The position numbers and the translations under genes are program-made. Of a DNA stretch of 64,000 bases, positions 7,931 to 63,786 are shown in pieces; positions within the stretch are counted from its first letter, which is position 1; the number at the start of each line of letters is the position of its first letter. The stretch lies in assembly GCA_016186115.1 (NCBI GenBank), contig JACPMK010000003.1:26470-90469 (forward strand), given 5' to 3'. The notes beneath the pieces are model-generated. The model did no database searches, was not told the origin of the DNA, and was given only the letters and a program-made list of their open reading frames with translations. Source of the DNA: Candidatus Wildermuthbacteria bacterium (GTDB lineage: Bacteria > Patescibacteriota > Minisyncoccia > Minisyncoccales > UBA10102).

Positions 7931-8278
7931 CTATCTTCCCCTCAAAAGAAGATTCTGACGCATGAGCTTCAAAAGCCGTTCTTCTACCTGAACTTGCGTG
8001 AAGCTACGAAAATCGGGCGAAACAATCAAGACGATATCGAAACCATTGCGTATGAAGCCCAGATTTTTGCGCACAGCTTCGCGAATCAAGCGACGGAACC
8101 GATTACGCTTAGTTGCCTGCTTTGATACCTTTTTGCTCACCATAATGCCAAATCTCGAAACGTCCAGCCCATTTTCCCTTGCCCGTATTGTAAGGCCATT
8201 GGCTCGAGATACTCTGCTCTTCTGAAATACGAAGTCGAAATCTCTTTTTCGTCGAAGCCGAAAAGCGGGGGGAAGCAT
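7931..8278 (-). CDS. rnpA: Ribonuclease P protein component
   Basis: Basic 115-aa protein with LRRKRDFDFVF and KKVSKQATKRNRFRRLIRE motifs. Lies downstream of rpmH. Confidence 0.85.
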   Translation of the reverse strand: MLPPAFRLRRKRDFDFVFQKSRVSRANGLTIRARENGLDVSRFGIMVSKKVSKQATKRNRFRRLIREAVRKNLGFIRNGFDIVLIVSPDFRSFTQVQVEERLLKLMRQNLLLRGR

Positions 8279-8289
8279 GTGTCGCTTTT

Positions 8290-8424
8290 TTATACGGCTA
8301 ATCTTGCACGCTGTTTTCTGCGTCTGCGCTGGAGCACCCTTCTGCCCTGTTTGGTTTTGCTCCGCCTTAAAAAACCATGCGCACGACTTCTCTTCCTTCT
8401 CTTGGGTTTATAAGTAAAACTCAT
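8290..8424 (-). CDS. rpmH: 50S ribosomal protein L34 (not in the ORF track, 44 aa)
   Basis: Hand translation of the minus strand gives [44 protein letters not shown]. This is classic L34 sequence in the classic position upstream of rnpA. Confidence 0.9.
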
Positions 8425-11227: not shown

Positions 11228-13141
11228 CTACTGGGCGGGAGAGGAAAGATAGGGAAGCGCATTCCTCATAAAATAGTTCCAGATTGGAGCAGCAAGCTCA
11301 ACGCCGGGCCCACGTTCCATGTAATCATTGTTGTTGTTTCCAACCCATGCTCCGGCAACAATTTTATCGGTATAGCCAATAGCCCAAGCATCTTTATAGT
11401 CCTGCGTAGTTCCTGTTTTTGCCGCAACGCGATACCCTTCAATATAAAGCGGAGAGCGGGCTCCGAAGATGGGGGCCCGTGCGTCGTTATCAGAAAGAAT
11501 GTCAGTAATGAGTCGGGCTACATCAGGAGAGAGAACTGTCGCGGGGATTTTTTTGTTTTCTTCAATGGTATCTCCTTCAGAATCCTTGATGCGGATAATG
11601 GAAACAGGCGGCACCCTTCTCCCTTCGGTGGCAAAGACGCCGTAGGCCGAGGTTATATCTAGTAGCCGAACCTCTCCTCCTCCCAAAACCAAAGCGGGGC
11701 CGTAAAAAGAGAGATCGCGATTCAACGTGGTAACCCCCATTTTTTTTGCGGTCTCGATGCTTTCTTGGATGCCTGCGTACTCCAGCAGGGTTTTTACCGC
11801 GGGGATGTTCAATGATTGAGCGAGGGCAACGCGGATGGTTACGGGGCCACGGAATTTCCCGTCGTAGTTTTGGGGAATGTATTCTTTCCCGCCCCATACT
11901 CCAAAGTTCGTGAGCTCATCTATAATAATGGTTTGATCGTTTGCCGCCCCTCTTTCAAATGCAGTTGCGTATACAAAGGGCTTGAACGCGGAACCCGGTT
12001 GGCGTCCGGGGTACGCGTTCACAATATTAACCTTGGGGTCAAAAAGACAATTTTTGCCCGGGACGCATCCTTTTGGATAAGAATCTCCGTCCCAGCTTTT
12101 AGATCCTACCATAGCGAGAATTTCTCCTGTTTGGGGGGTGATTGCAACCAGCGCCGCATTATGCGCATTGTATGCCTTATTGCGCTCGACATAAGTCTGG
12201 ACCGCCGTTTCCGCGGCTTTTTGTAGATTCCAATCCAAGCTCGTATACACATTAAGCCCGTTTGTCCGGACAAAATCCTCTCCGTATCGGTCGAATAGCT
12301 GGTCGAGAATATACATGATAAAGTGAGGGGCTTTAATGCTCTCGGAGGGTTCCTGCGAGAGGAATTGTATCTCTGCTTTTTTCGCGTCTTCGGCCTCGTT
12401 GGTAGCGATGTATTCTTCCTGTGCCATGCGGTCTAGCACGTAATTTTTTCTTGCCAGCAATTTATCTTTCCGGTCGCCATATGGAGAATAATAAGAAGGT
12501 GCTTGGATCAGCGCAGCAAGGGTTGCGGATTCTGCAAGCGTAAGTTCGCCCGGCTTTTTACGAAAATAGAGTTGCGAGGCCGCACCCACGCCATAGGTGT
12601 TTGCGCCCAAGGGTACTTGATTGAGATAAAATCCCAAAATTTCATCCTTGGAATAGCGGCGCTCCAATTCAAGGGTGATAACAACTTCTTTGATTTTTCG
12701 TTCGAATGTTTTTTCTCTGGTGAGAAATGAGGTGCGCACTAACTGTTGAGTAATAGTTGAGCCGCCTTGAGCAGGACCACGCAGCCGGATATTTGCAAGA
12801 GCTGCTCTGGCAATGCTTGTGGGGTCAATGCCGAAATGATGGTAGAATCTCCTGTCTTCAGTTGCGATTACTGCCTGCTGAAGATATTTTGGAGTTTCCG
12901 AAAGCAGGACAGGATCGCGCTTTTCTTTTTCGTAAATTTCGTAGAGAAGCACTTTGCCGGTTCTGTCGTAAATTTTTGTGGGCTGGGAGAACGATGCTTC
13001 GGTGAATCGTTCGGGTCGCGGGAGGTCTTTTGTGTAATAAAAAAACAAGCCCATAATCACTGCAATCCCGAGCACCATAACCGCAAAGAAGGCCCCGATG
13101 CCCCACACAATGCCGCGCATGAGTGTTTTATGAGTTCGCAT
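11228..13141 (-). CDS. Class A penicillin-binding protein (transglycosylase/transpeptidase, PBP1A family)
   Basis: N-terminal TM; GT51 motifs EDRRFYHHFGID and GGSTITQQL; transpeptidase motifs SAFKPF and KTGTT. Confidence 0.9.
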   Translation of the reverse strand: MRTHKTLMRGIVWGIGAFFAVMVLGIAVIMGLFFYYTKDLPRPERFTEASFSQPTKIYDRTGKVLLYEIYEKEKRDPVLLSETPKYLQQAVIATEDRRFYHHFGIDPTSIARAALANIRLRGPAQGGSTITQQLVRTSFLTREKTFERKIKEVVITLELERRYSKDEILGFYLNQVPLGANTYGVGAASQLYFRKKPGELTLAESATLAALIQAPSYYSPYGDRKDKLLARKNYVLDRMAQEEYIATNEAEDAKKAEIQFLSQEPSESIKAPHFIMYILDQLFDRYGEDFVRTNGLNVYTSLDWNLQKAAETAVQTYVERNKAYNAHNAALVAITPQTGEILAMVGSKSWDGDSYPKGCVPGKNCLFDPKVNIVNAYPGRQPGSAFKPFVYATAFERGAANDQTIIIDELTNFGVWGGKEYIPQNYDGKFRGPVTIRVALAQSLNIPAVKTLLEYAGIQESIETAKKMGVTTLNRDLSFYGPALVLGGGEVRLLDITSAYGVFATEGRRVPPVSIIRIKDSEGDTIEENKKIPATVLSPDVARLITDILSDNDARAPIFGARSPLYIEGYRVAAKTGTTQDYKDAWAIGYTDKIVAGAWVGNNNNDYMERGPGVELAAPIWNYFMRNALPYLSSPAQ

Positions 13142-13244: not shown

Positions 13245-14429
13245 ATGCCCAAGAGAGATATCGCCTCCATTCTCACCCGACGGGTAGAAACCATTCTGCC
13301 TACAAGAGAAGGCCTTGAACAGTTGATGCGGCAACGCAAAATCAAGGTCTATCTTGGAGTTGATCCCACCAGTCCCAATTTGCATTTGGGCCATGCAGTA
13401 CTTTTCCATAAACTCCGAGAATTTCAAGAACTCGGACACAAAATAATTCTTTTGTTCGGCACATTCACCGCTCGCATTGGCGACCCTTCCGGACGGGAGA
13501 ATGCGCGGGAACAGCTTACACCCCAGCAGGTCAGGCAAAACATGATTGCTTACAAAAAGCAGGCGGCAAAGATTTTGGATGTTTCGAAAACAATAATCAA
13601 ATATAATGATACCTGGCTTAAGCGCCTTACATTTGAGGACGTACTTAAAATAGCATCCCAGTTTACGAGTAGTCAGCTTTTGGAACGGGACATGTTTCAG
13701 CAGCGTTTCAAAGAAGGAAAAGAGGTCTGGATGCATGAGCTTTTGTATCCCTTAATGCAGGGGTATGATTCCGTGGCATTGGACGTGGATTTGGAAATTG
13801 GAGCAATCGACCAAACGTTTAATATGCTGGTTGGCAGAAAACTAGAGAAGATATATCGCAATAAAGAAAAATTTGTTTTAACGACCCCTTTGCTTCTTGG
13901 CTTGGACGGCAGAAAAATGAGCAAAACATACGGGAACGCCGTTCATTTGCTCGATGGTCCAGATGAAATGTACGGGAAATTAATGAGCCTGAAAGACGAA
14001 TTGGTCTTGCATTATTTTGAACTTTGTACGGATGTGCCAGAAGAGGAGATTCGCACGATAGCAAAAGCTCTTCAGGAGCGGAGCATCTCGCCGCGCGATC
14101 TCAAGGCGCGTTTAGCCCGGGAAATTGTTACTTTCTATCACGGGGTAAAGAATGCGCAAAAAGCAGAGCAAGAATTTATCAGAGTGTTTCGGGAAAAGCA
14201 GATGCCCTCACGGATTCAGGAGGTACACATTGAGAAATTCCAGCTCGCCCTTCTCGATCTTCTCGTCGAGACGCAACTTGTTCCGAGCCGTTCTGAAGCA
14301 AGAAGAGTCATTACCCAAGGGGGCGTAAAAATTGATGGGAAAATGCAAAAAGAAGCCGATCGCATTGTCTCTCTCCAAAAAGGAATGGTGGTGCAGGTGG
14401 GGAAGAGGAATTTTGTGCGCCTAGCTTAG
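13245..14429 (+). CDS. tyrS: Tyrosyl-tRNA synthetase
   Basis: HLGH (HIGH-type) and KMSKT motifs, with a C-terminal S4-like domain (SRSEARRVITQGGVKIDG). Confidence 0.95.
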   Translation: MPKRDIASILTRRVETILPTREGLEQLMRQRKIKVYLGVDPTSPNLHLGHAVLFHKLREFQELGHKIILLFGTFTARIGDPSGRENAREQLTPQQVRQNMIAYKKQAAKILDVSKTIIKYNDTWLKRLTFEDVLKIASQFTSSQLLERDMFQQRFKEGKEVWMHELLYPLMQGYDSVALDVDLEIGAIDQTFNMLVGRKLEKIYRNKEKFVLTTPLLLGLDGRKMSKTYGNAVHLLDGPDEMYGKLMSLKDELVLHYFELCTDVPEEEIRTIAKALQERSISPRDLKARLAREIVTFYHGVKNAQKAEQEFIRVFREKQMPSRIQEVHIEKFQLALLDLLVETQLVPSRSEARRVITQGGVKIDGKMQKEADRIVSLQKGMVVQVGKRNFVRLA

Positions 14430-31602: not shown

Positions 31603-31821
31603 ATGACAGGAAAGAATTTGCCCAAAAGCATACGGAAGTTTATTCGTCAAGAAAAAGCCAGAATTCGAAGGCAGATTTTTGATCCCAAAGAACAAGCCAA
31701 AGCAATCGAAGAGCTTTACCAGCGCATATATAATCAATACGGAAAATCAACAGTAAAGCAATCCAAAGAGATTCCCAATAAACCTAGGCTTGCCTTGAGC
31801 GAAGTTGAAGAGTCCCCATAG
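31603..31821 (+). CDS. Small basic protein (72 aa), uncertain
   Basis: Track ORF rich in K/R/Q. Its last 10 nt overlap the tRNA-Arg 5' end. No SD. Confidence 0.35.
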   Translation: MTGKNLPKSIRKFIRQEKARIRRQIFDPKEQAKAIEELYQRIYNQYGKSTVKQSKEIPNKPRLALSEVEESP

Positions 31822-31884
31822 TTTAACGGATAAAGCGTTGGCCTCCGAAGCCAAAGATTGGAGGTCCGATTCCTCCTGGGGACA
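31812..31884 (+). tRNA. tRNA-Arg (anticodon CCG)
   Basis: Hand-folded cloverleaf: acceptor GTCCCCA/TGGGGAC, D arm GTTT-AACGGATA-AAGC, anticodon arm TTGGC-CTCCGAA-GCCAA, T arm GGAGG-TCCGATT-CCTCC, discriminator A. 73 nt, no encoded CCA. Confidence 0.9.
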
Positions 31885-32053
31885 CGATTTGGAAGTGGAT
31901 AGCTCAAGTATTGACGAGATGACTGGAATCTGCAAAGATGTACTCTAATTCTTCCAGCACCTTGGCACATATCTTTTGAGCGCCTTTTTGTTCAGGAGAT
32001 TGTGTTCGTGGCTAAAAGGGCGCTCAAAACAGCAGCGGGAGAAAGGGAGCAAG

Positions 32054-38049: not shown

Positions 38050-38077
38050 TTGACAAATATTTTGCAATTCATACAAT
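38050..38077 (+). promoter_or_regulatory. Sigma70-type promoter of the greA leader
   Basis: TTGACA (38050-55), 16-nt spacer, TACAAT (38072-77). Confidence 0.6.
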
Positions 38078-38083
38078 GATATA

Positions 38084-38330
38084 TGATGTGGATTCGCCGT
38101 TAGGAAAATTAGGGCATTCACGGAGTGTTTGTTAGGATTTTGAAGCAGGTCAACATCATGGTACAACATTTGCAGCAAAATTGTTTTCGACAGTTCTCTC
38201 TCAAAAAGCTCAATAACCAGAAAGCCATTATTGAGATTTCGATTATTGCGCACAGCCGGATTTGTTGACAATACATATCATTAGTACTGCATCGTCAATA
38301 AATCTGGCTCTCGCAAGCCAGATTTTTTTC
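38084..38330 (+). promoter_or_regulatory. About 245-nt greA leader: candidate leader-peptide attenuator (Ile-rich micro-ORF 38158..38268, antiterminator/terminator alternative)
   Basis: Micro-ORF MVQHLQQNCFRQFSLKKLNNQKAIIEISIIAHSRIC. A 16-bp helix 38254-69 / 38294-309 competes with terminator AATCTGGCT-CTCGCA-AGCCAGATT + T7 (38301-38330). No room for a promoter before greA. Confidence 0.5.
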
Positions 38331-38352
38331 TTCAATAATATTCTCACTACGT

Positions 38353-38838
38353 ATGACAACTCAAACAACAACTCAACCCCCAAAATTTTATCTCACCAAA
38401 GAAGGACTCAAAAAAGTCCAAAAAGAATACGACAAGCTCCTTGAATTCCGCTCGCTGAAAATGAAGGGCGAAGTGCCCAGTATTTTGCATTCCGAAGATG
38501 TAAATCCTGATTACCTTACATTCCAAGAAGATATGAACTTGCTCGAATCCCGCATCGCCGAGTGCGAAAATATTCTCAAAAATGTTGAGTTGATTCAAAC
38601 TCCGAAAGAAGAAAAAAATATGGTCTGGTTAGGAGCAACAGTTACTCTTGAGGAAGTTCCAGACGGAACAATTAATGAGTACACTCTTCTGGGAACTCTT
38701 GAGGCGAATCCCGCAGAGGGTAAAATTTCTTCGGAATCCCCTGTGGGGCGGTCTCTTCTTGGGAAAAGAATAGGAGAAGAGGTGGTGATCAGTTCTCCTA
38801 TCCGAGTTGTCTACAAAGTTAAGAAAATTATTTATTAG
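38353..38838 (+). CDS. greA: Transcription elongation factor GreA
   Basis: N-terminal coiled coil (LTKEGLKKVQKEYDKL) and C-terminal FKBP-like domain (ISSESPVGRSLLGKRIGEEV). Confidence 0.85.
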   Translation: MTTQTTTQPPKFYLTKEGLKKVQKEYDKLLEFRSLKMKGEVPSILHSEDVNPDYLTFQEDMNLLESRIAECENILKNVELIQTPKEEKNMVWLGATVTLEEVPDGTINEYTLLGTLEANPAEGKISSESPVGRSLLGKRIGEEVVISSPIRVVYKVKKIIY

Positions 38839-45261: not shown

Positions 45262-45265
45262 AAAG

Positions 45266-45614
45266 TGGAGGTGGCGGGTACCGACCCCGCGTCTGGACAG
45301 GTCAAGGAATACAATCTTCAGGCATAGTCCGGTTGAGGTTGAGAAAGGGTTAAAACCGGACAAAATCCCTTTCCCTTAAGATCGAAAGGTTCAATAGTTC
45401 TCCTGATCTTAAAGAGAGCTATCTATCTCGATGGTTGGCACCTATTCCGTATACCGAGAATCAGCGGATAGGCGGCCTAAGCATTTTATGCGTAGGCAAG
45501 TGCCCTTTGAGGGGCAAATGGATTGGCAGTTGTTACTGCTCCAAGTTTTGAAGAGTTCTTGGAACTCTGTCTGCAGCATTCCTGTTGCTGTCCATCGAAA
45601 CCCTGTTCACCCCC
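45266..45614 (-). ncRNA. ssrA: tmRNA (SsrA), 349 nt
   Basis: 5' end is GGGGGTGAACAGGGTTTCGATGG and 3' end is GACGCGGGGTCGGTACCCGCCACCTCCA. Acceptor GGGGGUG/CACCUCC has the G3-U pair. Tag ORF (45527..45486) encodes ANPFAPQRALAYA plus stop. Adjacent to smpB. Confidence 0.85.
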
Positions 45615-58117: not shown

Positions 58118-58788
58118 TGGGCACTCTTTTTATTGTCGCCACACCAATCGGCAATCTCGAAGATATTACTCATCGGGCGCTTCGCGTATTGCGCCAAGCA
58201 GATTTTATCTTATGCGAAGATACAAGGGTTACCAAGAAATTGCTCGATCATTACGGAATTGCAACTCCAACGTTGAGCTATCATCAACACAGCACTCCAG
58301 AGAAGATGAGCTATGTTTTTGGTCTTTTATCTACTGGAAAGAATATCGCATTGGTTTCTGATTCCGGAACTCCCGGAATTGCAGACCCCGGCAATGAACT
58401 CATCGAATTTTTGCTCCAGAAAAATCCCGGAATAAACATAGCTCCTATTCCTGGCCCTTCTGCGGTCGCCGCAATCGCAAGCATTTCTGGGTTTCCAACG
58501 AATTCCTTTTTATTCTTGGGATATCCGCCGAGTAAAAAAGGCAGAAAGAAATTTTTTGAGAAAGTTGCAGAGTCGCAATGCCCAGTGATTTTCTACGAGT
58601 CGCCCTACCGGATTATAAAAACTCTGCAGCAGTTGCAGGAGTTAAGCCCAGAGGTATATGCGGTAGTGGGCAGGGAACTTACCAAACAATTCGAAACAAT
58701 CTCCCGCGGCCCTATTGACCAAGTGCTCCAAATAATGCAGAAAGATAAGGTAAAAGGAGAATTTGTGGTAATTGTATACAACCAATGA
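58117..58788 (+). CDS. rsmI: 16S rRNA (cytidine1402-2'-O)-methyltransferase
   Basis: LFIVATPIGNLEDIT, CEDTR, DSGTPGIADPG, and a tetrapyrrole-methylase fold pattern. Confidence 0.9.
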   Translation: MGTLFIVATPIGNLEDITHRALRVLRQADFILCEDTRVTKKLLDHYGIATPTLSYHQHSTPEKMSYVFGLLSTGKNIALVSDSGTPGIADPGNELIEFLLQKNPGINIAPIPGPSAVAAIASISGFPTNSFLFLGYPPSKKGRKKFFEKVAESQCPVIFYESPYRIIKTLQQLQELSPEVYAVVGRELTKQFETISRGPIDQVLQIMQKDKVKGEFVVIVYNQ

Positions 58789-60278
58789 ACAAAAAATTCT
58801 ATATCACAACTGCAATTCCCTATGTGAATGCCCGCCCGCACATCGGGCATGCTTTGGAATTTATTCAGGCCGATGTCATTGCGCGCTACCATCGTCTGAA
58901 GGGTGAGGAGGTTTTGCTTTTGTCTGGAAGCGATGAGAATGCGCTTAAAAATGTTCAAGCCGCCCAGAGCGCCGGAGTCCCTGTGCAGCAATTTATTGAT
59001 GAAAACGCCGTGCTTTTTGTCGAGTTGGCCAATGCGCTTGGCGTGCAATTCGACGTATTTCAAAAGGGAAGCAGCAAAGAACACCATCTCTCCAGTCAGA
59101 AACTGTGGCAACTTTGCGCCGAAAATGGGGATATCTACAAAAAATCCTACGAAGGTTTGTACTGCACGGGATGCGAAGCATTTTATACTCCAGATGAGCT
59201 TGATGCGAATCAGGAATGCCTTGAGCATCCCGGCCGAAAACTCGAGAGCGTCTCCGAAGAAAATTATTTTTTCAAACTTTCACGATATCAGGACAAAATC
59301 ATTAGTGTATTGGAAAGCGATGAATTGGAAATTGTTCCCGCGACCCGAAAAAATGAAATGCTCGCTTTTTTGAAACAGACACTGCAAGATATTAGCATTT
59401 CGCGCACCAATGAACGCGCCAAAAATTGGGGCGTGCCAGTTCCGGCCGATGATTCTCAAAGAATGTATGTTTGGTTCGATGCCCTCAATATGTATCAGTC
59501 GGGAGTTGGATTTGGATTAGATGAACAAAAGCATAACAAGTGGTGGCCGGCAGATATTCATGTGATTGGCAAGGGGATTATTCGTTTTCACGCGGTGTAC
59601 TGGCCGGCATTTCTTTTGTCGGCTGGGTTGCCTTTGCCCAAGAAAATCTTTGTTCATGGCTATATCACTTCAAGCGGACAAAAAATGTCAAAGACACTGG
59701 GAAATGTGGTTGATCCTTTTCCGCTTGTCGAAAAATATGGAAGTGGTGCAGTACGTTACTTTTTCTTGCGCGAAATTCCGCCGACAGAAGACGGCGATTT
59801 TTCCTATGAAAAATTCGAAGAGAGGTATAATTCTGACCTTGCGAGTGGTTTGGGAAATCTTGTCGCGAGAGTACTCGCGCTTGTAGGAAAAATAAATCCG
59901 AAATCCTTTGACAAGCTCAGAATCCCGAGCGAAGTCGAGGGACAAATTCAAAGTCCAAAACTGCGGGAAATTATAAATGCAGCGAGAGAAAAGGTGGATA
60001 CGGCGTTGGAAAAGTTTCAGTTTCAGGATGCGTTGATTGCCATTTGGGATGTGATTCATTTTTGCGACAGATATATTGAGGAGAAAAAACCGTGGTCTTT
60101 CGACTTCGCTCAAGATAAACCCGATCAAAAAGAAGTAATCGACGATTTATTGCTAGCAATTTTAGCAATCGGCACGCTTCTCAAGCCATTTCTCCCCGCG
60201 ACTTCAGAGAAAATAGCGAATCAATTGCAACATGGAAAAGGCGATCCTCTCTTCCCGCGTCTTGACAGAAATGTATGA
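58785..60278 (+). CDS. metG: Methionyl-tRNA synthetase (short form)
   Basis: PYVNARPHIGH (HIGH), KMSKTLGN, zinc knuckle CTGCEAF, C-terminal anticodon-binding helices. Confidence 0.95.
   Translation: MNKKFYITTAIPYVNARPHIGHALEFIQADVIARYHRLKGEEVLLLSGSDENALKNVQAAQSAGVPVQQFIDENAVLFVELANALGVQFDVFQKGSSKEHHLSSQKLWQLCAENGDIYKKSYEGLYCTGCEAFYTPDELDANQECLEHPGRKLESVSEENYFFKLSRYQDKIISVLESDELEIVPATRKNEMLAFLKQTLQDISISRTNERAKNWGVPVPADDSQRMYVWFDALNMYQSGVGFGLDEQKHNKWWPADIHVIGKGIIRFHAVYWPAFLLSAGLPLPKKIFVHGYITSSGQKMSKTLGNVVDPFPLVEKYGSGAVRYFFLREIPPTEDGDFSYEKFEERYNSDLASGLGNLVARVLALVGKINPKSFDKLRIPSEVEGQIQSPKLREIINAAREKVDTALEKFQFQDALIAIWDVIHFCDRYIEEKKPWSFDFAQDKPDQKEVIDDLLLAILAIGTLLKPFLPATSEKIANQLQHGKGDPLFPRLDRNV
59894..59941 (+). 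repeat. In-frame composite insertion in metG: two AAATCCN heptamers plus an imperfect palindrome
   Basis: AAATCCG AAATCCT, then CCTTTGAC (59905-12) / GTCGAGGG (59934-41) pairing with two G-U, and an inner GCTC/GAGC. Translated NPKSFDKLRIPSEVEG. Confidence 0.55.
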
Positions 60279-60289
60279 AAAAGTATACT
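60262..60289 (+). promoter_or_regulatory. Sigma70-type promoter overlapping the metG 3' end (cassette A)
   Basis: TTGACA (60262-67), 16-nt spacer, TATACT (60284-89). Confidence 0.6.
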
Positions 60290-60298
60290 ACACTAATC

Positions 60299-60379
60299 AT
60301 GAGCAGCCAGATCAGAAAAGGATTTTATTTCTTCTTTTTTACCAGCCCCGGCGAAGAGCGAGGTCGTTATTCTTGTTAA
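60299..60379 (+). CDS. Candidate near-leaderless leader peptide with a Phe/Tyr run (26 aa)
   Basis: MSSQIRKGFYFFFFTSPGEERGRYSC. The ATG is about 3-4 nt from the predicted TSS. The F/Y codons 60323-60340 are followed directly by ACCAGCCCC, which can pair with the terminator 3' arm. Confidence 0.35.
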   Translation: MSSQIRKGFYFFFFTSPGEERGRYSC

Positions 60380-60405
60380 TCGAAAACATCTAACCAAGAA
60401 ATCAC

Positions 60406-60441
60406 CCAGCCCTTCGTCAAACGAGGGGCTGGTTTTCTTTT
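60406..60441 (+). terminator. Rho-independent terminator / attenuator in the leader of the 117-aa ORF
   Basis: CCAGCCCTTCG-TCAAA-CGAGGGGCTGG (11 bp, one G-U) followed by TTTTCTTTT. Confidence 0.7.
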
Positions 60442-60542
60442 CGCCCTGCGGCGAAAAGACGATGTTTTCTGATGAGAGCTCCAACACATTCGGGTTTCTC
60501 ACCAGAGAAGATCTTAACTATCTCTGGTTAAGGAGGGAAACA

Positions 60543-60896
60543 ATGGCCGAACATCGTATGGGTATAATACAGGGTAGCACTGGAACGCTCAAAGAGGTTC
60601 TTGGAATGCTTGGGGTGTCGATAACAAAATTCGCATTCCAAGGGCATAATTCGTCGGACTCGTGTGGACAGCAAGGGGTGCATCCTCCTCACGTACTGGA
60701 GGAGTATAGACATTATTGCATTGGGAAAGCTGGCTGTGTGGGAGAGGATGTGCTTATCGTAATTGCCGAAGAACGGCAACTGTACCCAGCACGTGCAAAA
60801 GGGATTTACTTCCTCCTTCCAAGAAATGCATTCCCCTCTTTCCGGGATCCGCTTATGCAAGTTGGCGTAGGGCAAGGTCCTGGATATACCGGCTAA
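60543..60896 (+). CDS. Orphan protein, 117 aa, SD-led (P3)
   Basis: AAGGAGG (60530-36), 6-nt spacer, ATG at 60543. Cys/His-rich middle (SCGQQGVHPPH...YRHYCIGKAGCVGED). No family recognised. Confidence 0.55.
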   Translation: MAEHRMGIIQGSTGTLKEVLGMLGVSITKFAFQGHNSSDSCGQQGVHPPHVLEEYRHYCIGKAGCVGEDVLIVIAEERQLYPARAKGIYFLLPRNAFPSFRDPLMQVGVGQGPGYTG

Positions 60897-60917
60897 ATCT
60901 GGAAAGTACGGCCTATA

Positions 60918-60953
60918 GGGCGGAGCTTTACCGAGCTCCGCCCGTTTTCTTTT
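60918..60953 (+). terminator. Rho-independent terminator
   Basis: GGGCGGAGCT-TTACCG-AGCTCCGCCC (10 bp) followed by GTTTTCTTTT. Confidence 0.8.
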
Positions 60954-60998
60954 GACAAGCAGTTGACAACCCTGTTTTCAATTTGCTATGGTTATAAT
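60952..60998 (+). promoter_or_regulatory. Promoter of cassette B
   Basis: Consensus TATAAT at 60993-98. Two TTGACA copies (60952-57, 60963-68) are spaced too far away for a canonical -35, so the -35 is ambiguous. Confidence 0.45.
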
Positions 60999-61008
60999 AC
61001 TTGAGCTT

Positions 61009-61095
61009 ATGAAGAAAATCTCCCAAACAATGTTGCTTTTGTTGGTCTTGGTAACTAATCCTACTCGGTTGGGAGATTTTGATCGCAGAAGTTAA
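61009..61095 (+). CDS. Candidate near-leaderless leader peptide with a Leu/Val run (28 aa)
   Basis: MKKISQTMLLLLVLVTNPTRLGDFDRRS. The TTG CTT TTG TTG GTC TTG GTA codons are in phase. The ORF spans attenuator segments 1 and 2. Confidence 0.5.
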   Translation: MKKISQTMLLLLVLVTNPTRLGDFDRRS

Positions 61096-61121
61096 AAATA
61101 CAAAATTCCTTGCGACAACGT

Positions 61122-61153
61122 AACCTCCCAACCGCGGGAGGTTTCTTCTTTTG
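61122..61153 (+). terminator. Rho-independent terminator (segments 3:4 of the cassette B attenuator)
   Basis: AACCTCCC-AACCGC-GGGAGGTT followed by TCTTCTTTTGTCTT. Confidence 0.75.
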
Positions 61154-61327
61154 TCTTGAGGAGTAAGGAAAAGTTTATTCCTTATTCCCCAGGCCAGAAG
61201 AGTATGTCTGGTTTGGAGCAGCAAGTTCACCTACCATAAGCGTGAGCGTGCTGTAGGAAGATAATCCTGCGATCGGGTAACATCTGTGAGCAGGATAATC
61301 CTCTGAATTGCTAAGGAGGAGAACGAG

Positions 61328-61387
61328 GTGGTTGAGAAGACCCCCCACTTTCTTGGCTGCTTCGTTCTCTTCCCGCGCAATGTTTAG
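61328..61387 (+). CDS. Possible 19-aa micro-ORF, SD-led
   Basis: AAGGAGG (61313-19), 8-nt spacer, GTG at 61328. Encodes MVEKTPHFLGCFVLFPRNV. Confidence 0.25.
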   Translation: MVEKTPHFLGCFVLFPRNV

Positions 61388-61410
61388 CACATTGTATGAA
61401 GGAGGGTGAG

Positions 61411-61584
61411 ATGTACTTTGGTTCGCACATTTGCTGTCTGGATGCCTTTTTCATAGGGGAGGACGGCAGTGGGGCGGTGAAAAAACTTAAAGAGGCGCCA
61501 CCGCCGCCACCAGAAAACGAAAAGGAGAAACTTCTTCCTGCTGACGAAGACCTGCAAGGTCAGCAGGACGAGAAATCATCCTAG
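61411..61584 (+). CDS. Orphan protein, 57 aa, SD-led (P4)
   Basis: AAGGAGGG (61399-406), then ATG at 61411. Encodes MYFGSHICCLDAFFIGEDGSG...APPPPPENEKEK... with an acidic tail. Confidence 0.45.
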   Translation: MYFGSHICCLDAFFIGEDGSGAVKKLKEAPPPPPENEKEKLLPADEDLQGQQDEKSS

Positions 61585-61594
61585 CTCTCCCATG

Positions 61595-61647
61595 CGGCTC
61601 CTTTTGTTTGCGCATCAACGCGCAGCAGGAGGAGCCGTCCATTTTTT
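61595..61647 (+). terminator. Compound hairpin terminator
   Basis: CGGCTCCT (61595-602) / AGGAGCCG (61630-37) with inner TGCGC/GCGCA, followed by TCCATTTTTT. Confidence 0.6.
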
Positions 61648-61649
61648 AC

Positions 61650-61678
61650 TTGACATTATCCCTTGAGCTTACTAGTAT
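61650..61678 (+). promoter_or_regulatory. Sigma70-type promoter of cassette E
   Basis: TTGACA (61650-55), 17-nt spacer, TAGTAT (61673-78). Confidence 0.55.
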
Positions 61679-61695
61679 AAAATATACTCTTCAGC

Positions 61696-61788
61696 ATGGA
61701 CATTATTTTACAGATCAGACAAGCGATTATTGGCATTATTACCATTATTAGCCCCACCAAACGAGGGAGTTTCTTGCAGCAGCTATAA
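61696..61788 (+). CDS. Candidate leader peptide with an Ile run (30 aa)
   Basis: MDIILQIRQAIIGIITIISPTKRGSFLQQL. Four ATTATT pairs plus one ATC are all in frame with the ATG. Confidence 0.45.
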   Translation: MDIILQIRQAIIGIITIISPTKRGSFLQQL

Positions 61789-61813
61789 ACTACAAACTAC
61801 TAACTAAAATCTG
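61786..61813 (+). repeat. Heptanucleotide-periodic tract (TAAACTA type) between micro-ORF and terminator
   Basis: TAAACTA CAAACTA CTAACTA AAATCTG. Confidence 0.7.
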
Positions 61814-61814
61814 C

Positions 61815-61845
61815 ATCAGCTCCCTCGCGGGGGCTGATTTTTTTG
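61815..61845 (+). terminator. Rho-independent terminator (cassette E)
   Basis: ATCAGCTCCC-TCGC-GGGGGCTGAT (10 bp, one G-U); the run of seven T (61838-61844) begins at the last stem T. Confidence 0.8.
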
Positions 61846-61928
61846 AGCATAGTGCATGGGCTTGATTCTCCAATCTCATTCACTGCGCTCAATACCAGAG
61901 AGTGCAGTAATAGCACGAGGAGGGTGTA

Positions 61929-62111
61929 ATGAAAAGGGAAGAGAAGTCCGATATTATTGAAGAAATCGTGACGGTTCTCGCGGGAGGAGATTTTGCCGGA
62001 GGCGAGAAACAGCGCCGCAAAAATCGAAAAGATAAGCTGGAGAAGAAGAGGTGGGGGAAAGCTGCTGCTGACGCAGGAGCTCTGCCTGCCAAAGACAGTC
62101 TTGATTTGTAA
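61929..62111 (+). CDS. Orphan protein, 60 aa, SD-led (P5), highly charged
   Basis: GAGGAGGG (61916-23), then ATG at 61929. Encodes MKREEKSDIIEEIVTVLAGGDFAGGEKQRRKNRKDKLEKKRWGK.... Confidence 0.5.
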   Translation: MKREEKSDIIEEIVTVLAGGDFAGGEKQRRKNRKDKLEKKRWGKAAADAGALPAKDSLDL

Positions 62112-62136
62112 TTTATGTTTCTCTTCCTTAGGTTTC

Positions 62137-62177
62137 GGGGGCTCGCTGAATGGTTCGCGAAGTGAGCCCCCTTTTTT
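62137..62177 (+). terminator. Rho-independent terminator
   Basis: GGGGGCTCGC / GTGAGCCCCC (10 bp, one G-U), 15-nt loop, followed by TTTTTT. Confidence 0.8.
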
Positions 62178-62192
62178 GTGGAAATATTCCTC

Positions 62193-62221
62193 TTGACGAT
62201 ATTTTGCAAAGAGATTATTCT
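62193..62221 (+). promoter_or_regulatory. Sigma70-type promoter of cassette G
   Basis: TTGACG (62193-98), 17-nt spacer, TATTCT (62216-21). Confidence 0.5.
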
Positions 62222-62281
62222 AGGTATTGTTTTAAGAATCACTGCACCTTAAACAGAGCATTAGTTGAAGGGAGAAGGAGA

Positions 62282-62590
62282 ATGGCAAAGACAGCTGTCC
62301 TCCTTAGGAAGGGGGATTGGCAGAATGGCAGGACGGGAGATTACAGTAAAATCGTAGAGCTGTTGAAGATTCTTCACAGGGAGTTCAAGGTTCAGCGGCT
62401 CTTACTTGATCAGGAAGTTCTTGATGCGTTGCCTTCAAAACTTCGTGATGTTAAGCTTGTGTTTCTTGTTCCCTCCGGAGGCCAGAAGCCACAAACTCCG
62501 GAAGGGATCAAGATAACAATAGCTGAACTTCCAGAGAATTTCTCGAAGATGGAATTCATCGCAGCCGTCTTTCCCGATTTCCCACAATAG
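62282..62590 (+). CDS. Orphan protein, 102 aa, SD-led (P6)
   Basis: GGAGAAGGAG, then ATG at 62282. Encodes MAKTAVLLRKGDWQNGRTGDYSKIVELLKIL.... No family recognised. The longer track start at 62150 was rejected. Confidence 0.55.
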   Translation: MAKTAVLLRKGDWQNGRTGDYSKIVELLKILHREFKVQRLLLDQEVLDALPSKLRDVKLVFLVPSGGQKPQTPEGIKITIAELPENFSKMEFIAAVFPDFPQ

Positions 62591-62618
62591 CCCGTCCACT
62601 AGGCCGGGCTATTTTTTT
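62588..62618 (+). terminator. Rho-independent terminator
   Basis: TAGCCCGTCC-ACTA-GGCCGGGCTA (one mismatch) followed by T7. The stop codon lies in the stem. Confidence 0.75.
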
Positions 62619-62659
62619 GTCTTCTTTATTATTCTTGCTTTTTGAGTACAATAAAACAT

Positions 62660-63544
62660 ATGCCTTTTCTCATCGATACCCATGGACATGTTAATTTCAA
62701 TGCGTTTCGCAACGATGCGGACGATGTTCTTGGCCGCGCATTGAAAAATGATACGTGGGTGATCATGCCCGGCTCTCAATATTCCACATCGCAGCGGGCG
62801 GTTGAAATCGCAGAGCGTTTTAAAAATGGAGTTTTCGCCGCAGTCGGCATTCACCCCATCCATTTGGAGCATCGGGAAGTAGATGTGATGGAGGTACAGT
62901 CAGCGAAGGGAGAGAAAGAGAGCTGGATGACCTTTGAAACTAGAGCCGAAGAATTTGATCATGAGGCCTATAAAGATTTAGCAAAAAGCAAAAAAGTGGT
63001 GGCCATCGGCGAGGTTGGTCTTGACTATTATTACGAACCCAAAGGCAAGGCGAAAAGAGAGGAATTCCGGGCGCGACAAAAGGAAACTCTCGAGAAACAA
63101 ATTTCACTGGCCCTTGAATTGAATCTTCCCGTCATTTTGCATTGCCGCGCCGCCCATCCCGATCTTTTTAATCTACTCACTACCCGCTATCCACTGCCAA
63201 CCAGCGATTTTCGTGGCGTGCTGCATTGTTACACAGGAAATCTTGAGCAGGCGAAAAAATTTTTGGATCTGGGTTTATACTTCGGATTCAATGGTTTGAT
63301 TTTCAAAAAAGTTCCTGCGCTCCCTGATCCGCGCGAAATTATTTCTTTTCTTCCATTGGATCGCATTCTTCTCGAGACCGATTCGCCGTATTTGGTTCCA
63401 TCGCAGGCGGCTGTAGAACGAAATGAACCTTTGTTTGTAAAGTACGTTGCCCAGGAAATTTCCCGCATCAAAAATATCCCCCTTGAAAAGGTAGCAGAAA
63501 TTACCACCCAAAACGCCTTGACTCTTTTCCATTTATCTTTTTAG
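62660..63544 (+). CDS. tatD: TatD family metal-dependent hydrolase/DNase
   Basis: MPFLIDTHGHV start, GIHP, EVGLDYYY, HCR and ETDSPYL motifs. It has an unusually long insert between the GIHP and EVGLDYYY motifs. Confidence 0.9.
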   Translation: MPFLIDTHGHVNFNAFRNDADDVLGRALKNDTWVIMPGSQYSTSQRAVEIAERFKNGVFAAVGIHPIHLEHREVDVMEVQSAKGEKESWMTFETRAEEFDHEAYKDLAKSKKVVAIGEVGLDYYYEPKGKAKREEFRARQKETLEKQISLALELNLPVILHCRAAHPDLFNLLTTRYPLPTSDFRGVLHCYTGNLEQAKKFLDLGLYFGFNGLIFKKVPALPDPREIISFLPLDRILLETDSPYLVPSQAAVERNEPLFVKYVAQEISRIKNIPLEKVAEITTQNALTLFHLSF

Positions 63545-63606: not shown

Positions 63607-63786
63607 ATGAGCACATCCGAGATAGGAAAGCATATCTGTAGAGAGTGGGCGGAGAGAATCCCAGGGGCTCCGGGTTTCTGTATCTGTCGGAAATGTGGGG
63701 GGCGGGTGTTGACAGAAGAACCAAATAGACCCCCCGAAGGTACAAACAGGAAAGGAACCACCGCACAATTTCTGGAGGTGGCGTAG
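63607..63786 (+). CDS. Small Cys-rich orphan protein (59 aa, below track threshold), SD-led (P7)
   Basis: AGGAGGGAGG, then ATG at 63607. Encodes MSTSEIGKHICREWAERIPGAPGFCICRKCGGRVLTEEPNRPPEGTNRKGTTAQFLEVA, a possible zinc ribbon. Confidence 0.45.
   Translation: MSTSEIGKHICREWAERIPGAPGFCICRKCGGRVLTEEPNRPPEGTNRKGTTAQFLEVA

Follow-up and report, generated by a model that had tools for sequence, protein, structure and literature searches.

Does a short isoleucine-rich reading frame, followed by a transcription terminator and then by a gene for which no relative is found, act as a switch for that gene? The question is raised by positions 61650-61930 of a 64,000-nucleotide stretch of the Candidatus Wildermuthbacteria contig JACPMK010000003.1 (assembly GCA_016186115.1), hereafter the window. 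Here a promoter, a 30-codon micro open reading frame (micro-ORF), an intrinsic terminator and the start of a 60-aa orphan gene, P5, follow one another on the forward strand, an arrangement termed cassette E. The original prediction of an Ile-codon leader-peptide attenuator controlling P5 is supported by the anatomy of the locus and by comparison with its family, and cassette E is probably a working ribosome-mediated transcription attenuator that senses charged tRNA-Ile and gates transcription into P5. The cassette and its target comprise the following elements, the 5' untranslated region (UTR) of P5 with its Shine-Dalgarno (SD) sequence included.

61650..61678, + strand: promoter, -35 box TTGACA (61650-55), 17-nt spacer, -10 box TAGTAT (61673-78); 10 of 12 consensus positions matched
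61696..61788, + strand: leader micro-ORF, 30 codons, encoding MDIILQIRQAIIGIITIISPTKRGSFLQQL and ending in a stop codon
61702..61749, + strand: regulatory codon tract, nine Ile codons (eight ATT, one ATC)
61748..61755, + strand: X1, outer strand of the antiterminator, TTAGCCCC; pairs with the terminator 3' arm GGGGCTGA
61762..61771, + strand: X2, inner strand of the antiterminator, CGAGGGAG(TT); pairs with the terminator 5' arm and loop, CTCCCTCG (61820-27)
61775..61815, + strand: apical part of the antiterminator, UGCAG (61775-79) paired with CUGCA (61811-15)
61815..61844, + strand: intrinsic terminator, ATCAGCTCCC-TCGC-GGGGGCTGAT, a 10-bp stem (six G-C) with a 4-nt loop at 61815-38, then the T run
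61844..61928, + strand: P5 5' UTR, with a hairpin at about 61844-61891 (z=-2.45) and the SD GAGGAGGG at 61917-24
61929..62111, + strand: P5, orphan gene of 60 aa, charged product; the predicted regulated gene
62137..62177, + strand: terminator of the P5 unit, GGGGGCTCGCTG...GAGCCCCC followed by T6

Transcription is predicted to start near 61685, leaving a 5' UTR of about 10 nt without an SD. The distance from the -10 box to the ATG is 17 nt, compared with 8-13 nt in most cassettes of the family described below, which look leaderless. An alternative promoter, combining a -10 box TATACT (61683-88) with a -35 box TTGAGC (61663-68), is ruled out by its 14-nt spacer. The micro-ORF has an in-frame codon-usage score of 0.23, and no gene with its product is on record in the contig collection searched. 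Its Ile codons occupy positions 3, 4, 7, 11, 12, 14, 15, 17 and 18 and form four in-frame ATTATT pairs, with a 9-nt tandem unit, ATTATTNNC, present three times at 61726-61752. Against an Ile background of 7.4%, measured on 20 long proteins of the window, nine or more Ile among 30 residues have a probability of 2.3e-4. The promoter, the reading frame, its nine Ile codons and their in-phase pairs had all been called in the original prediction, and each is confirmed on the sequence. A type I toxin or small membrane peptide is ruled out as the function of the micro-ORF, the hydrophobic run covering only about 9 residues here and 6-8 residues in the sister peptides.

The ATG of P5, at 61929, lies 84 nt past 61845 behind a strong SD, as had been described. 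The P5 codon score is 0.244, compared with 0.214 ± 0.083 for real genes and about -0.27 for off-frame segments; this places P5 at the 64th percentile among segments of real genes, a score that not one of 4000 off-frame segments reaches. By codon use, P5 looks like a real gene. Exhaustive HMMER and word-indexed searches of 1.84 billion cluster representatives and 5.8 billion clusters return only P5 itself, and it matches nothing in Pfam, NCBIfam or PDB.

The earlier claim that no promoter separates the terminator from P5 also holds: a consensus scan of 61679-61928 finds no promoter-like site of at least 9/12, and no TTGACA occurs there. Were the micro-ORF and its terminator a stand-alone small gene, P5 would have to be transcribed from an unrecognised promoter within 61845-61928. 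The promoter rules of the phylum are uncharacterised and the consensus scan used here is simple, both of which favour such a division into two units. However, the units of the surrounding island all use a perfect or near-perfect TTGACA as -35 box, with none between the terminator and P5, and the same promoter-free layout from leader to gene recurs in relatives upstream of prephenate dehydratase (PDT), DAHP synthase (DAHPS) and LeuA_dimer genes. Two independent units are very improbable on this evidence.

Terminator and antiterminator folds

The stem and loop of the terminator are as originally described, and its end is one position earlier: 61845 is a G, and the T run ends at 61844 (61838-44, seven T when the last stem base is counted). 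Folded alone, the terminator has an energy of -16.6 kcal/mol. Its 5' arm can instead be captured from within the micro-ORF. The segment CGAGGGAG at 61762-69 is the exact reverse complement of CTCCCTCG at 61820-27 over 8 bp, confirming the perfect complementarity noted before (CGACCGAG is a designed mutant version of X2 CGAGGGAG). The most stable duplex that the ORF can form with the terminator 5' arm reaches -17.6 kcal/mol, compared with -8.5 ± 2.4 in 1000 dinucleotide shuffles (p=0.005). X1, an element beyond the original prediction, forms a helix that is 93% paired across nine cassettes, to which cassette E contributes a U-A instead of C-G. Because X1 pairs with the 3' arm and X2 with the 5' arm, this nested two-helix antiterminator unfolds the whole terminator hairpin. 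Within the apical part lie the stop codon and a G-poor loop with AACTAC[AT] heptamers (61789-61809). A heptamer tract between the stop codon and the terminator had been reported as a departure from classical geometry; the tract is simply this apical loop.

Antiterminator and terminator are mutually exclusive. The region 61685-61850 folds with z=-2.8, the minimum free energy (MFE) structure being the antiterminator. From the ORF start to the terminator, the folding check suggested with the prediction gives an MFE of -37.3 kcal/mol for the antiterminator and -31.7 kcal/mol with the terminator forced, so that the antiterminator is favoured at equilibrium by 5.6 kcal/mol. If the fold is computed without the terminator 3' arm, which mimics ongoing transcription, the 5' arm is already taken by X2. 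The ribosome-free fold is thus the antiterminator, and because a protector 1:2 hairpin is absent, an untranslated leader is expected to read through.

Ribosome position and the proposed switch

In the proposed mechanism, RNA polymerase would start at the TTGACA/TAGTAT promoter and, because P5 has no promoter of its own, would have to pass the terminator at 61815-44 to reach it. X1 and X2, located in the last third of the micro-ORF, would jointly pair with both terminator arms, making the antiterminator the thermodynamic default. When Ile-tRNA is scarce, the ribosome would stall at the early or middle Ile codons, leaving X1 and X2 free to capture the emerging 5' arm of the terminator; the polymerase would then read through and P5 would be made. 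When Ile is plentiful, the ribosome would cover X1 and X2 and reach the stop codon 14 nt past X2. There it would occupy the apical region of the antiterminator and mask or sterically block X2, so that the terminator could form and transcription would stop. The analysis establishes the layout of the locus, the statistics and energies of the pairings, the family setting and the protein-coding nature of P5; we infer that the micro-ORF is translated, that the outcome responds to Ile and that folding follows this kinetic order.

The scheme was modelled by masking a ribosome footprint at each A-site codon and computing the probability, at equilibrium only, of the complete terminator hairpin, P(terminator).

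A site at codons 3-14 (6 of the 9 Ile codons): P(terminator) at most 4e-6
A site at codon 15 (Ile): P(terminator) about 1e-3
A site at codons 16-18: P(terminator) 0.2-0.5
A site at codons 19-30: P(terminator) 0.5-0.75
Stop codon, footprint to P-15: P(terminator) 0.70
Stop codon, footprint to P-12: P(terminator) 0.0016

In this model the ON state, with the ribosome stalled on Ile codons, is robust. Given the value for the P-12 footprint, the OFF state needs either a larger footprint or a kinetic or steric argument, in which a ribosome in the apical region of the antiterminator would block nucleation before the local hairpin forms. About 9 of 13 other sister cassettes likewise have their modelled switch point within the codon run; the exceptions are L172_F, L092_c3, L171_F and L092_F.

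Readthrough as the default without translation also suits a sensor of translation speed in general (stress, antibiotics), since any failure of the ribosome to reach X2 would open the switch. Alternatively, the main output might be a product that acts in trans, either the terminated transcript (about 160 nt) or the 30-aa hydrophobic peptide, like rnTrpL/peTrpL of Sinorhizobium; small RNAs and leader peptides derived from attenuators and endowed with trans functions are documented (PMC6614838, PMC7298713). Both ideas, which we hold to be improbable, run against the specific enrichment of Ile codons (9 of 30, P=2.3e-4) and against the sister cassettes, each of which has a different single-amino-acid run matching the downstream gene in relatives. 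For a trans-acting peptide, the hydrophobic stretch of about 9 residues reads as too short for a membrane helix.

The metG-tatD island and its leader cassettes

Cassette E sits in a 2.36-kb stretch between metG (58785-60278) and tatD (62660-63544). Because tatD lies within a few tens to a few hundred bases of metG in most of the Patescibacteria relatives retrieved, this stretch is a lineage-specific island. It contains three like-built units of promoter, micro-ORF and terminator.

60262-60440, promoter to terminator: uA (Phe), micro-ORF at 60299-60379 with an FYFFFF run, MSSQIRKGFYFFFFTSPGEERGRYSC; terminator at 60406-32; followed by a 117-aa orphan
60952-61152, promoter to terminator: uB (Leu), micro-ORF at 61009-61095 with an LLLLVLV run, MKKISQTMLLLLVLVTNPTRLGDFDRRS; terminator at 61122-43; followed by a 57/62-aa orphan
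uE (Ile): cassette E, followed by the orphan gene P5

Within 60200-62700, TTGACA occurs only at 60262, 60952, 60963 and 61650, with a micro-ORF downstream of each. Antiterminator strands internal to the ORF are present in uA (p=0.008) and uB (p<0.001) as well. A fourth orphan gene of the island, of 102 aa, has a promoter of its own. The orphan ORFs show in-frame codon use typical of real genes; together with a tblastn search of the window with the L008 DAHP synthase, which finds nothing, this rules out the island as a decayed biosynthetic gene.

Comparison of window positions 60279-62659 with L008, L092, L168, L171, L172, L173, L176 and L177 shows that the gene content of the metG-tatD island turns over fast in Wildermuthbacteria. 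The relatives have genes there for DAHP synthase, prephenate dehydratase, peptidase M20, Asp/Glu racemase, a LeuA_dimer domain standing alone and a Trp-repressor-like protein, along with numerous unrelated small ORFs; the window has orphan genes only, and no resemblance is found between their proteins and the small proteins of the other islands.

The Phe and Leu cassettes of the window and at least eight loci of related Wildermuthbacteria share the architecture of cassette E: a TTGACA promoter is followed by a micro-ORF that contains a run of one amino acid and, in its 3' third, an antiterminator strand, and 19-32 nt past its stop codon lies an intrinsic terminator. The family is defined here by TTGACA near the ATG, a single-residue run, X1 (AGCCC) and X2 within the ORF, and the terminator CAGC.C..GGGGCTG, and cassette E falls within it. 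The original prediction expressed a reservation about a less classical geometry, which the family spacings remove.

Last regulatory codon to X2: 12 nt in cassette E, 7-12 nt in the family
X2 to stop codon: 14 nt in cassette E, 5-14 nt in the family
Stop codon to terminator: 26 nt in cassette E, 19-32 nt in the family (26 nt in uA and L008)

Downstream of the Phe leader peptides, ..FF[YF]FFFTSPxEExGxCSC, lies DAHP synthase in L008 (Pfam E=1e-73) and in L171, PDT with DAHP synthase in L168, PDT in L173 and L176, and an orphan gene in L092, L172 and the window. A stand-alone LeuA allosteric domain (LeuA_dimer) follows the Leu leaders of L008 (Pfam E=2e-28) and L172, and Trp leaders (..WWW..) are found in L172 and L089. 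In relatives, the residue that makes up the run thus corresponds to the gene that follows, as expected of genuine amino-acid attenuators, and the family behaves as such. Almost every Phe and Leu cassette has, in the 3' third of its ORF, a segment complementary to the 5' arm of its terminator (individual p from <0.001 to 0.13). Two more distant Patescibacteria carry similar units, namely L085, with a micro-ORF MKIINNNNWWTTFLW and a terminator at 8251-8343 between a Trp-repressor-like gene and trpB, and L087, with a micro-ORF MKIKNNNNWWTTLLW and then a terminator at 11294-11387. These look like Trp leader-peptide attenuators in another lineage of the candidate phyla radiation (CPR).

Within the family, cassette E is related to uA. 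The two align over their whole length (z=12 against shuffles, global alignment) and share an in-frame local match, CAGATCAGAMAAG-GATT, at p of about 0.007; a hidden Markov model (HMM) of eight Phe cassettes finds cassette E as its second-best match in the 64 kb (E=0.003). From uA to cassette E, the inner helix changes on both strands with complementarity kept, CGAAG:CTTCG becoming CGAGGGAG:CTCCCTCG, and in the outer helix (X1:t2) a C-G pair becomes U-A. Judged by these alignments, cassette E is a probable paralog of the Phe cassette of the window. It would have arisen by duplication of a Phe-type cassette and subsequent replacement of the sensing codons, and the three-fold 9-nt repeat ATTATTNNC suggests how that replacement came about.

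Searches for orthologs with nhmmer, with a covariance model and with a motif scan (terminator plus codon run, 170 loci, both strands) recover only Phe-type members and a weak L090 match. The only candidate homolog is L092 c3 (12877-12966, MKRSGSHKKVSSLQIISIVSSFKGWVRFA). Over the Ile tract it matches ATTATTACCATTATTAGCCCC in frame at 18 of 21 bases, and it keeps I-I-x-I-V in phase, with three Ile codons and one Val.

Several results weigh against an Ile-sensing attenuator. Translation of the micro-ORF is assumed, as it has no SD and a 5' UTR of only about 10 nt, and the Ile run coincides with a 9-nt tandem repeat that slippage could have made. A protector or pause (1:2) hairpin was sought in the folds and not found, the AT-rich beginning of the ORF offering X1 and X2 no partner; the original prediction had likewise seen no clear segment 1, and most sister cassettes lack this hairpin too. 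In the model, a ribosome with a P-12 footprint at the stop codon leaves the antiterminator dominant (P(terminator)=0.0016). P5 has no known link to isoleucine. When uA is left out of the HMM, the match to cassette E weakens to E=0.17, and no clear ortholog of cassette E appears among about 177 related loci. L092 c3 has only three Ile and one Val, its complementarity is weak (p=0.09), and it is modelled as always terminating. Finally, the island is present in seven metagenome (Logan) contigs, and all seven, each with P5, are 100% identical throughout it. Because of this identity, strain variation among these contigs, and with it conservation or covariation of cassette E, is uninformative.

Some of these points would equally be expected if cassette E were a decaying, unselected copy of a Phe-type cassette, with an Ile run produced by slippage of the 9-nt repeat, a terminator that is leaky or constitutively open, and a P5 expressed independently of Ile. 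The missing ortholog, the tandem ATTATTNNC units and the orphan target fit such a relic. So does the 5' UTR of P5, which retains the hairpin that follows Phe-cassette terminators only as a degenerate remnant (TTCTCCAATCTCA at 61866, ACCAGAGAG at 61894), and with the antiterminator ahead by 5.6 kcal/mol at equilibrium, readthrough could be constitutive. A relic does not, however, readily account for an intact micro-ORF with its Ile run in phase, for an 8-bp perfect X2:t1 helix (p=0.005) retained despite changes on both strands relative to the paralog, for spacings that are still those of functional family members, or for a modelled switch point within the Ile run. Decay is therefore considered unlikely, although less so than the other alternatives above, and a working Ile attenuator is preferred.

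A broader reading of the island can be put forward only tentatively. Wildermuthbacteria may possess a toolkit of portable, near-leaderless, one-amino-acid attenuators (Phe, Leu, Trp, Ile) housed in the metG-tatD island; here the cognate metabolic genes would be gone and the sensors would drive orphan micro-proteins, with cassette E as a recent switch from Phe to Ile by duplication and codon replacement.

Several further features of the island cassettes were observed. A conserved hairpin lies 3' of the Phe-cassette terminators, composed of UUCUCUGA, a variable stem and CCAGRGAA, with 10 of 17 pairs changed on both sides. Its copies are located as follows.

Window: 60465-60527
L008: 7735-7830
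L168: 3178-3250
L171: 4150-4235
L172: 3843-3915
L173: 1258-1345
L176: about 11390-11470

This hairpin is present whether the downstream gene is an orphan, PDT or DAHPS, and the window copy matches no Rfam family. A second UCUCUGG copy comes after it, with CCAGAGAA, immediately before the SD, as a possible alternative pairing partner, and the hairpin may form a second regulatory layer. The motif GCACCTTA is found at 62244-62251, in the 5' UTR of the 102-aa orphan gene; the same motif follows the UCUCUGG element in the Phe cassettes of L168 and L176, with a similar one in L008, and it may be an anti-SD element.

Between the uB terminator and the next gene lies a spacer of about 250 nt (61150-61395) with a direct repeat, GATAATCCT, at 61260 and 61294 and an SD-like AAGGAGGAG; no promoter is found in it. 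In L092, the ORF of a Leu-type leader (13387-13581, 64 codons) has no stop before the terminator and runs through it. This copy is either outside the attenuator model or affected by a sequencing error, and not every copy is a textbook attenuator.

Known attenuators and other features of the window

In the ilvGMEDA and ilvBN leaders of E. coli and Salmonella (ilvL, ivbL), clustered branched-chain codons lie upstream of an intrinsic terminator, and the position of the ribosome selects the structure. These enterobacterial leaders are SD-led and multivalent (Ile, Val, Leu), contain a protector or pause 1:2 hairpin, place the antiterminator strand at or after the stop codon, and control ilv biosynthesis. 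As in them, the terminator 5' arm of cassette E can instead pair with an upstream segment. Unlike them, cassette E uses Ile codons only, has neither an SD nor a 1:2 hairpin, holds both antiterminator strands inside the ORF and precedes an orphan, and it shows no sequence or Rfam similarity to them. For the Ile/Val/Leu leader of ilvBNC in Corynebacterium glutamicum (Actinobacteria), whose target is acetohydroxyacid synthase, translation without a ribosome-binding site was reportedly found by Morbach et al. in 2000. Compared with that leader, cassette E, with its UTR of about 10 nt, does not have a strictly leaderless start. In its proposed operation cassette E resembles the classical ilv, leu, phe and trp attenuators; it differs from them in lacking a protector hairpin, in its ORF-internal antiterminator strands, in its SD-less start, and in its target, which belongs neither to the biosynthetic nor to the aminoacyl-tRNA synthetase genes.

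No Rfam leader family matches 61650-61930, even at E up to 10, and the only Rfam match there is a chance one to CRISPR-DR21 (20 bits). The only leader-type Rfam matches of the window come from the Phe and Leu sister cassettes, which hit pheL (RF01859, Phe_leader) with 18.1 and 25 bits, where the gathering threshold is 55 bits. As with pheL, the Phe-type cassette of relatives controls prephenate dehydratase; the peptides (..FFFFFTSPxEExGxCSC) and structures of Wildermuthbacteria are unrelated to those of the gammaproteobacterial pheL groups (PMC3082878).

Attenuation by leader peptides is textbook knowledge. Such leader peptides were known from Proteobacteria and Actinobacteria only until a 2010 survey added Firmicutes (PMC2965389). 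Among the latter, Bacillus His leader peptides upstream of hisS/hisZ are attenuators outside the classical phyla with non-biosynthetic targets, arisen by duplication and 'hopping' (Naville & Gautheret 2010, PMC2965389). The hisS/hisZ targets are obviously tied to the sensed amino acid, whereas P5 has no known tie. Cassette E shares with Sinorhizobium trpL (PMC6614838, PMC7298713) a short terminated RNA and a peptide with possible functions of their own, but it shows no sign of a trans function. Full-text searches of a library of papers found none linking leader-peptide attenuation with Patescibacteria, CPR or Parcubacteria. The phylum is generally described as lacking most amino-acid biosynthesis.

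Against this background, the window would present a CPR lineage with a battery of leader-peptide switches, one of them specific for Ile and guarding a gene for which no homolog is found. If functional, cassette E would be a natural case of sensor specificity rewired through codon changes, a route to orphan proteins that respond to amino-acid supply in uncultivated bacteria, and a compact, reusable two-state attenuator design without a protector hairpin or an SD. If the tentative toolkit applies, tRNA-charging sensors would report amino-acid supply to new effector proteins.

Elsewhere in the window, at 38051-38352, a TTGACA-16-TACAAT promoter, a 36-codon ORF with AIIEISII (38158-38268) and a terminator (38300-25) lie directly upstream of greA (38353-38838). 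This Ile-rich ORF and terminator (38158-38325) are treated as unrelated to the island cassettes, whose features they do not have; the unit may be a greA leader terminator, and its Ile cluster is probably due to chance. After tatD, at 63607-63786, lies a 59-aa Cys-rich ORF that matches no family; its SD is strong, but its codon-usage score is atypical (-0.08). Two RNA genes complete the features recorded.

45263-45614, - strand: tmRNA (Rfam, 90.5 bits)
31812-31885, + strand: tRNA-Arg(CCG)

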